NCBI GenBank assembly: GCA_020348445.1
Contig: CP070751.1
Coordinates: forward strand, 4,032,662-4,096,661
Source: Thermoplasmata archaeon
Lineage (GTDB): Archaea; Thermoplasmatota; Thermoplasmata; GCA-020350865
DNA: 64,000 nt
Reading direction: 5' to 3'
This document shows, piece by piece, positions 20,355 through 50,873 of the stretch (position 1 is the first letter of the stretch; each line of letters opens with the position of its first letter). The position numbers and the translations under genes are program-made. The notes under the pieces are model-generated. The model ran no database searches. It saw only the letters and a list, made by a program, of their open reading frames with translations, and was not told where the DNA came from.

Positions 20355-20644
20355 CCCAAGGCCATATCAAACTGGTTTTCTTGTGGTCTACACATAATAA
20401 GTCATTGTATATAGACATATTGATATAAATGCCCTATTGTTTTCAAATCCCCCACTTCCCATCCATTCAATCCCTCCTACCTTTCCCCCTCCGTCGTGTC
20501 CTATTCAATTCACTATATAATGAATTCATATGCCACTCTGTCCTTCGGTTATACTAAAAGACAATTATATCTTAAACCTCATGACTCTCACCCATTTTTA
20601 TATCCCCCATATATTTATCTGAAAGATATCTTCTAATGTCAGGA

Positions 20645-50250: not shown

Positions 50251-50280
50251 ATTAAGGGCCAATGCGTTTATTAAGGGGCC

Positions 50281-50710
50281 GCCGAGCCCTGAGGTTTAAG
50301 AAACAATTATTTTACATTTATAACCGAAGGGCCAAGGCTAATAAGAAGATTCAATTGCCGAGCCATTAAGCTTAAGACATAATTGAATTAGAATTATAAC
50401 TTAATGGCAAGGCAACTAAGAAATTTGAATTGTCGGGTCTTTCAGCTTAAGAACCGATTTTTATGTAATTATAACTGAAAGACAAGGCTATGTATAAATG
50501 GGGCCGCCGAGCCCTGAGGATTAAGACACCATTGTATTACAATTATAACCGAGGGGCCAAGGCGTATAAAATGGGGCGGTCGAGTCTTTCAGCTTAAGAA
50601 CCAATTCTTATATAATTATAACTGAAAGACAAGGCTATGTATAAATGGGGCCGCCGAGCCCTGAGGATTAAGACACCATTGTATTACAATTATAACCGAG
50701 GGGCCAAGGC
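50281..50710 (-). repeat. Array of six 57-58-bp hairpin units (73-76-bp period) 3' of tRNA-Pro
   Basis: Units start (+ strand) at 50281, 50357, 50432, 50506, 50579, 50653. Consensus GYCGR-arm9-(C/A/T)TTAAGA-N15-(A/T)TTATAA-arm9'-(C)AAGGC. Confidence 0.92.
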
Positions 50711-50743
50711 GGCCCCACGTATTAATTTAATATAAAATTTAAG

Positions 50744-50873
50744 TGGGGCCGCCGAGATTTGAACTCGGGTATCCAGCATTTCGTATCATTTTCGAAACCG
50801 AGTTATTTTCCGGGAACTCGGTACTCAACGAAACCCCAAGCTGAGAGGATTGTCCAAGCTACCCTACGGCCCC
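50744..50873 (-). tRNA. tRNA-Pro(GGG) with a 55-nt intron at 37/38 (50779-50833); CCA not encoded
   Basis: GGGGCCGTAGGGTAGCTTGGACAATCCTCTCAGCTTGGGG[intron]TGCTGGATACCCGAGTTCAAATCTCGGCGGCCCCA folds as a 75-nt cloverleaf. Confidence 0.9.

Follow-up and report, generated by a model that had tools for sequence, protein, structure and literature searches.

A tandem hairpin array behind tRNA-Pro(GGG) in a Thermoplasmata archaeon and its apparently genus-restricted family

Introduction

What is a row of hairpins behind a tRNA gene, when the stems differ from one hairpin to the next while remaining paired? This question was raised by a locus in the window analysed here, a stretch of 64,000 nucleotides from a Thermoplasmata archaeon (contig CP070751.1, positions 4,032,662 to 4,096,661). 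A sequence-only reading of this window had described six covarying hairpin units behind a tRNA-Pro gene and had named three candidates: a stack of tiny non-autonomous elements integrating at the tRNA 3' end, attC-like recombination substrates without cassettes, and a co-transcribed array processed into small RNAs with tRNA-like 3' ends. What it had missed is that such modules form a family that extends through the genus and follows many tRNA genes, this locus being one member, with each copy tailored to its own tRNA.

Results and Discussion

The array behind tRNA-Pro(GGG)

Six hairpin units and a 12-nt stub were found on the minus strand, 3' of an intron-bearing tRNA-Pro(GGG) gene (window span 50254-50873; Table 1). 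The array is flanked by the tRNA 3' end on one side and by the 3' end of a convergent 617-aa ORF on the other, and beyond the stub lies the A/T-rich end of the intergenic region. ARAGORN detected the tRNA gene solely with the intron option and gave it the wrong label, Phe; the anticodon was assigned by reading the sequence and by comparison with the intronless paralogue carried by a relative of the same genus (G002). The number of units was borne out by a search for their two conserved motifs as a pair with a fixed 16-nt gap. This pair occurred six times in the window, always at 50296-50695 and on the minus strand, where 0.73 occurrences were expected from shuffles and none of 100 shuffled sequences reached six. 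With its six cores the array is the largest in the genome; tRNA-Trp has five cores.

Only the unit next to the tRNA is a full module. It begins with the inverted copy of the tRNA end (50708-50718), continues with the linker TTG and the core hairpin, and closes with the direct copy (50646-50658) of the tRNA 3' end. The inverted arm pairs with this copy over 10 bp, and the fold of this outer helix plus the inner stem has a minimum free energy of -34.2 kcal/mol (z -3.7 for the minus strand, -5.3 for the plus strand). In units 2-6 the inverted arm is cut to GCC, and the spacers measure 8-18 nt. A 12-mer of the tRNA 3' end is present in the tRNA itself at 50745 and recurs exactly at 50275, 50500 and 50647 and, in unit 2, with two mismatches at 50573. 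The supposed seventh tRNA end at 50254-50265 turned out to match the 5' start of a unit instead.

Pairwise identities of 100% between units 1 and 3, 92% between units 2 and 4 and 87% between units 6 and 1 agree with the order A-B-A-B-C-A' proposed from the sequence. The proposed duplication of 50432-50563 at 50579-50710 was likewise recovered by TRF, which placed a 147-bp duplication at 50432-50711 and reported additional older periods of 73-76 bp. This two-unit duplication is the newest event in the array.

Table 1. Coordinates of the tRNA-Pro(GGG) array and of a further family core in the window
Feature	Position	Strand	Details
tRNA-Pro(GGG) gene	50743..50873	-	Exon 1 50834-50873; exon 2 50743-50778, terminating in discriminator A and C74
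tRNA-Pro(GGG) intron	50779-50833	-	55 nt, position 37/38; ARAGORN with intron option, genome c[4083404,4083534]
AT-rich spacer of first (full) module	50719..50742	-	24 nt, contains TTTTATAT run
Unit 1, type A	50646..50718	-	Sole full module of the array; CM match 62.5 bits
Unit 2, type B	50572..50635	-	Truncated; inverted arm is a GCC remnant; perfect 9-bp stem; z -3.5; CM match 69.7 bits
Unit 3, type A	50499..50563	-	Truncated; core 100% identical to unit 1; z +0.7, no better than shuffles
Unit 4, type B	50432..50488	-	Truncated; tRNA-end copy down to 6 nt; 92% identical to unit 2; z -3.5
Unit 5, type C	50357..50413	-	Truncated; perfect 9-bp stem; tRNA-end copy down to 6 nt; z -5.0
Unit 6, type A'	50275..50338	-	Truncated; tandem TC/CT stem mismatch; 87% identical to distal unit of the G002 array
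Stub	50254..50265	-	First 12 nt of another unit; 11/12 matching unit 5' start
Recent tandem duplication of two units (A+B)	50432..50710		TRF: period 147 bp, 1.9 copies, 96% matches, score 532
Family core not beside a tRNA, class II	20537..20588	+	Type A-like tandem-mismatch stem; nhmmer E 1.8e-7; CM match 52.3 bits

Anatomy of the module

Across the family a full module opens with an AT-rich spacer of about 24 nt containing a TTTTATAT run. The end of the tRNA then appears in inverted form, followed by a linker of 3 nt and the core hairpin, and it is repeated in direct orientation after the core. Spacers like that at 50719..50742 were also present behind Ile, Ala, Arg, Trp, Gly and Leu tRNAs. 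The inverted arm of full modules is the exact inverse of the last 9-11 nt of the host tRNA, running through the discriminator and C74, and the direct copy in most first modules spans the tRNA from position 59-61 in the T loop to C74. Behind the Ser, Ala, Ile, Leu, Gly, Arg, Trp and Pro tRNAs the arms matched the end of the cognate tRNA, and the distance from T54 to the start of the first core was 54-57 nt. In modules behind tRNA-Ala the inverted arm exactly complements the 3' strand at the place where the genuine acceptor stem has G3·U70; the outer helix is therefore a single strand folded back on itself and does not reproduce the acceptor stem.

The core hairpin has a covarying stem of 9-12 bp around two invariant motifs, TTAT..T and TCTTAA, which lie 15-16 nt apart. 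The invariant columns (TTAT, one T, CTTAA and the first C of the stem) are all inside the stem and the feet vary; one unpaired base follows the second motif, the 15-nt centre is variable and the apical helix is weak. In 22 family members (alignment A1) the 12-bp stem was 90.5% paired and eight pairs changed on both sides (58 cells). The covariation score was 0.41 versus 0.04-0.10 for slid controls, and none of 500 shuffles reached the observed score. The earlier view that structure is kept while stem sequence changes is thus correct. Mean column identity of the cores was 71%, and the stems differ from copy to copy. When units were folded singly, unit 1 and those of types B and C had z values between -3.5 and -5.4, while the truncated units of type A were not better than shuffled sequence (z +0.7 and -1.1).

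Two classes of core could be distinguished. Class I is the commonest behind tRNA genes, and its 3' stem strand looks, by reading, like a T loop. Class II cores have a conserved tandem TC/CT mismatch; to them belong type A of the present array, the units behind Pro(TGG), Ser and Trp tRNAs, and some 15 copies without a neighbouring tRNA gene. At least four copies carry the loop flipped relative to their tRNA, with the motifs still intact. Between copies matched across species, some pairs of which are not strict orthologues, conservation was 85-92% for the motifs, 80-83% for the stems, 61% for the spacer, 57% for the loop and 37% for the flank past the module.

Several simple readings were discarded. 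The array is not a CRISPR array, as had already been stated: stems differ between units and there are no unique spacers between conserved repeats. Palindromic hexamers in the motifs had observed/expected ratios of 1.00-1.15 in the genome and are thus not avoided, so that a link to restriction-modification was rejected. Reverse transcription of mature tRNA halted at m1A58, prompted by the start of the copies at position 59-61, was rejected as the copies are without CCA unless this is encoded in the gene. A module acting as a spliceable T-loop intron was rejected as well; no bulge-helix-bulge motif was found on reading, and the tRNA is intact without splicing.

Distribution in the genome and the genus

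A scan for the motifs plus complementarity, combined with two nhmmer rounds, yielded about 54 cores in the 5.16-Mb genome (G000). As many as 33 of the 54 lie within 450 nt 3' of a tRNA called by ARAGORN, 30 of these 33 in the orientation of the tRNA. At least one core was found behind 20 of 47 tRNA calls outside a dense, foreign-looking tRNA cluster versus 0 of 19 within it. This cluster (G000:C1:4640570-4643566, outside the window) comprises about 19-27 tRNAs on one strand with an HNH-like ORF fragment inside and no hairpin module, and looks like a tRNA array borne by a mobile element or virus.

The cores that are not next to tRNA genes include the one at 20537-20588 (+) in the window and about 14 further sites in G000, e.g. 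71013, 1385647, 2191826 and 3451829. They have a 9-bp inverted pair of their own around an AT-rich spacer, are flanked by short C-rich direct repeats (CCCACC-like), and their upstream sequence is CT-rich and repetitive. Within 3.5 kb of 15 such copies no recurrent protein family was detected, only scattered pairs of paralogues.

Copies at other tRNAs are also a feature of the relatives: a covariance model (R1) found 22-38 matches per genome in all five genomes of the genus and no match in 146 other Thermoplasmata genomes sampled from 65 genera, all genomes compared being MAGs. In a pattern scan of one genome per species (a collection of 185,579 species), full matches to the covariance model among the 80 loci listed came from three members of the genus only, one of which, a complete MAG, is labelled Methanomassiliicoccales archaeon. 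The matches in bacteria, a Bathyarchaeota MAG and an Archaeoglobaceae MAG among these 80 loci were to the pattern only, with no full covariance-model match. Viral contigs gave 25 matches to the motif pattern, none of which had stems under the covariance model, and these were therefore regarded as chance matches. A literature search found no published description of the hairpin family, in line with the earlier statement that no archaeal element of such form is known to have been described. The family is apparently undescribed and genus-restricted.

Orthologous tRNA-Pro(GGG) loci

Modules occupy orthologous tRNA genes across the genus, and at the tRNA-Pro(GGG) gene the number of units ranges from one to six. 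One full module is present on metagenome contig L240, and one full module plus a 3' half unit in G004. On metagenome contig L239 another small insert is followed by two units, the second of which is cut to GCC as in the genome studied here. G002 has three full modules of about 99 nt each, and G000 the six units and the stub. The stem of the first unit varies between species, and the changes are compensatory.

Together with the identities between units, this comparison implies that the module is old at the tRNA-Pro(GGG) site and that the array expanded independently in different lineages. Recent growth in the genome studied here took place by local tandem duplication, as follows from the unit identities and the 147-bp duplication. 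Units 2-6 thus derive largely from local tandem duplication and not from repeated integration.

Passage between tRNA genes

In G002 an intron-bearing copy of tRNA-Pro(GGG) is interrupted after the T loop (L033:1600-1725, one contig of one MAG, from which alone this chimera is known). From the T loop onwards there follow the 3' end of tRNA-Trp, a Trp-type spacer, a degenerate Trp inverted arm, a class I core and then the Pro 3' end. A matching module lies behind tRNA-Trp in three other members of the genus, which confirms the Trp identity of the insert. The chimeric tRNA is unable to form a T stem, and the gene is probably dead. The whole chimeric locus extends over L033:1502-1725 (G002:C34) and is followed at L033:1795 by an intact tRNA-Pro(GGG) that lacks the intron and differs in its anticodon stem. 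A tRNA-Pro gene with a tRNA-Trp end and a Trp-type module shows that modules can pass between tRNA genes. The left junction is in the conserved T loop and the right junction at the foot of the core, without homology between Pro-type and Trp-type cores. These junctions argue for an insertion or replacement that has defined ends rather than for simple homologous conversion.

Heterologous integration would yield exactly such a chimera, including the right junction at the core foot without homology. Integrative elements that target tRNA genes by means of tyrosine recombinases carry or are linked to their integrase and use one or few tRNA species. Like them, the modules leave a tRNA 3' direct repeat flanking the insert and accrete in tandem behind the tRNA. 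Unlike them, the insert measures 60-100 nt, has neither ORF nor integrase, includes an inverted copy of the tRNA end and is found at 20 or more tRNAs. The arrays could be imagined as stacks of miniature non-autonomous elements served by an integrase in trans, each with an attP resembling the T loop and the 3' end of a tRNA. Insertion into the T loop would regenerate the tRNA and displace the old 3' end, and arrays would be repeated integrations with the newest beside the tRNA.

Direct repeats of the tRNA 3' part from the T loop or T stem are a classic att signature, and the three full modules of the G002 array, the distal unit as the one common to G000 and G002, the T-loop resemblance of the class I 3' stem strand and other small inserts with terminal tRNA 3' copies behind SeC, Tyr, Leu, Ser and Thr tRNAs would all fit this scheme. 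We nevertheless consider it unlikely. At least 20 different tRNAs have self-cognate arms, for which neither one integrase specificity nor a single att specificity can account. The scheme gives the inverted arm no role, orthologous sites are kept across species without turnover, no module was found on viral contigs and no recurring gene near the non-tRNA copies. The earlier proposal is partly supported by a Trp-type module that sits with its Trp 3' end inside a relative's tRNA-Pro gene; the stack of integrations does not fit units 2-6, which are truncated and duplicated pairwise.

The direct-inverted-direct arrangement of a short segment, here the tRNA end, also resembles tandem inversion duplications and fold-back priming (snap-back template switching). 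In contrast to these, the two junction sequences, spacer and core, are conserved family-wide across tRNAs and are not locally derived. Miniature inverted-repeat (MITE) or IS200-IS605-derived elements were rejected: the outer arms differ per tRNA, and the duplication is 13-17 nt of tRNA and not a short target duplication of fixed length.

Folding of DNA or of RNA

Non-canonical pairs were counted on the strand that carries the motifs, in most copies the sense strand of the tRNA. Among 50 distinct stems of the home genome, 19 A·C stood against 4 G·T (binomial p = 0.003, the copies not being independent), and among 54 stems from relatives 23 against 15 (p = 0.26, not significant). The hint from the home genome that the opposite strand folds was not reproduced in these 54 stems of the relatives. 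The combined sense-strand count was 19 G·T versus 42 A·C mismatches, and this excess of A·C over G·T means that there is no G·U enrichment in a sense RNA.

This result bears on a function at the RNA level, in which the units would be transcribed with the tRNA or from a promoter of their own and would act as processing signals, as mimics of the tRNA end or by pairing in cis with the tRNA 3' end. Stable covarying hairpins, the tRNA-like end of the outer helix in full modules and a TATA-like run in the spacer count in favour of such RNAs. In Rfam scans at gathering and at E-value thresholds no family reached its gathering threshold in the window; the best match below it, tmRNA_permuted with 32 bits against a cut-off of 47, spans the inverted arm together with the tRNA's T arm and 3' end (50704-50768, minus strand). 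It could be counted in favour of an RNA, but the structural match is coincidental and comes from a 3' strand with a 5'-like strand behind it. On the sense strand G·U-compatible pairs are rarer than A·C (4 vs 19 and 15 vs 23), and the Ala modules have a Watson-Crick pair in place of G3·U70. A T-rich run lies between tRNA and module, the outer helix is missing in five of the six units here, and flipped copies retain the motifs. An RNA-level function therefore appears highly improbable to us. Processed tRNA-like RNAs as suggested earlier are disfavoured by the same lack of sense-strand G·U enrichment, by the fold-back nature of the outer helix and by the flipped loops. A tRNA-like minihelix or tRNA mimic in the strict sense was rejected on the exact complement in the Ala modules as opposed to G3·U70 and on the sense-strand counts of 19 G·T versus 42 A·C.

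Resemblance to attC sites and REP palindromes

Integron attC sites have R''/R' core sites (RYYYAAC ... GTTRRRY) at the hairpin foot and separate gene cassettes downstream of intI. The present hairpins recall them in being imperfect hairpins with an unpaired base, short invariant motifs and a variable loop, features that suit recognition of structure. They could be sites at which a genus-specific protein reads a folded strand or a cruciform via the motifs and the bulged base, be it for recombination, for loop inversion or for some host role at tRNA genes, for instance in termination or as a barrier. Variable but paired stems, invariant motifs at fixed spacing and one unpaired base after the second motif speak for this reading. 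The motifs persist in old orthologous copies while loop and flanks diverge, flipped loops do occur, and the weak A·C excess on the motif strand (equal to G·T on the other strand) would fit the folding of one particular strand. We find this reading hard to credit in its attC-like form, and rate its chances as low. The outer arms of full modules are derived from tRNA, the RYYYAAC/GTTRRRY cores are absent, and the units are 73-76 nt apart without an ORF or cassette between them. The flanking ORFs are the convergent 617-aa one and one of 257 aa, with no integrase adjacent. The strand asymmetry is absent as a significant effect in the relatives, and there is no candidate protein. What stands of the earlier comparison with attC is the conserved structure with short invariant motifs; the defining features of attC are lacking.

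REP, BIME and REPIN palindromes, which are mobilised by RAYT (Y1 HUH) transposases, are scattered and share their sequence within one family. They are similar to the present hairpins as short, non-coding, gene-less imperfect palindromes, which occur between genes in tens of copies per genome and sometimes in tandem clusters. The cores described here differ from them in that the stem sequences vary, the copies adjoin tRNA genes and their arms are copied from the neighbouring tRNA. Copies near HUH genes had been suggested as something to look for; none of the matches to the Y1 transposase family PF01797 (1866358, 2860419, 3339079, 4214534 and 4215093) was adjacent to any core. All five genomes of the genus encode Y1 transposases, as do 13 of 36 others that are without the hairpins. 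A REP/REPIN-RAYT system was rejected on this non-discriminating distribution, on the mean column identity of 71% and on the tRNA linkage of 33 of the 54 cores.

Other inserts at tRNA genes

The genome has further small inserts at tRNA genes. Non-coding inserts of 85-230 nt lie on G000:C1 behind tRNA-SeC (5100149-5100330), tRNA-Tyr (2737300-2737554), tRNA-Leu (1361000-1361222), tRNA-Ser (154530-154760) and tRNA-Thr (5034300-5034551). Each terminates in a copy of the segment from T loop to 3' end of the tRNA; some are common to several tRNAs, and some begin with an inverse T arm. The same insert of about 48 nt was found in the T loop of one tRNA gene and in a 3'-end pseudo-copy behind tRNA-SeC (2879790-2879860 and 5100330-5100400), and is possibly a mobile T-loop intron. 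Upstream of tRNA-Ala(GGC) and tRNA-Lys (4789810-4790000 and 2800907-2801100) there are units in which a direct and an inverted copy of the first approximately 11 nt of the tRNA surround a different small hairpin core. Directly 3' of tRNA-Met, the region 2412480-2412746 resembles, on reading, the part of a tyrosine recombinase gene that encodes the C terminus, indicating that conventional tRNA-targeting integrated elements also occur in this genome.

Proposed origin and maintenance of the array

The explanation that we favour, with confidence about evenly balanced, is that a DNA-level fold-back module, non-coding and confined to the genus, attaches to the ends of tRNA genes and has here formed a local tandem array. 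At the same middling level of confidence, we take this DNA-level repeat to be kept either through correction templated by the hairpin or through recognition of its specific structure, with an occasional move via the T loop. A single module would have been placed behind tRNA-Pro(GGG) before the genus diversified, and the array would have grown via unequal exchange or slippage between the repeated copies of the tRNA end. The arms could stay complementary through quasi-palindrome repair, in which the hairpin is the template for correction, or because selection acts on a cruciform or a folded single strand, and the invariant motifs would be contact points of a putative protein. Now and then modules would move or convert between tRNA genes, with junctions in the T loop and at the 3' foot of the core.

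That the motifs have stayed invariant for so long points to such a putative protein as their reader. It counts against the favoured explanation that two short motifs kept over the long term in about 50 divergent copies per genome are more suggestive of a protein-binding site with a function than of selfish DNA that drifts, so that a host function is possible. Going beyond the fold-back repeat as such, we tentatively raise the possibility, which we hold to be somewhat doubtful, that the modules represent a new class of archaeal element: a structure-specific, protein-recognised site that copies or tracks the adjoining tRNA end, maintained either for a function at tRNA genes or by a recombination that would enter at the T loop and copy the end. 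Under this reading 3' tRNA ends would use the core described here and 5' ends another core.

Significance

If the modules are mobile or recombinogenic, tiny pieces of DNA without genes ride tRNA genes without breaking them and only occasionally do break them, as in the Pro/Trp chimera; this would explain tandem duplications of tRNA ends that lack an integrase. If they are protein-binding sites, they would add a new layer to the biology of tRNA genes in uncultured sediment archaea, labelled Methanomassiliicoccales in the record of a relative. Either way, the family offers a clean natural case in which stems are rewritten while two short motifs stay fixed, and with it a tractable handle for finding the protein that reads them.
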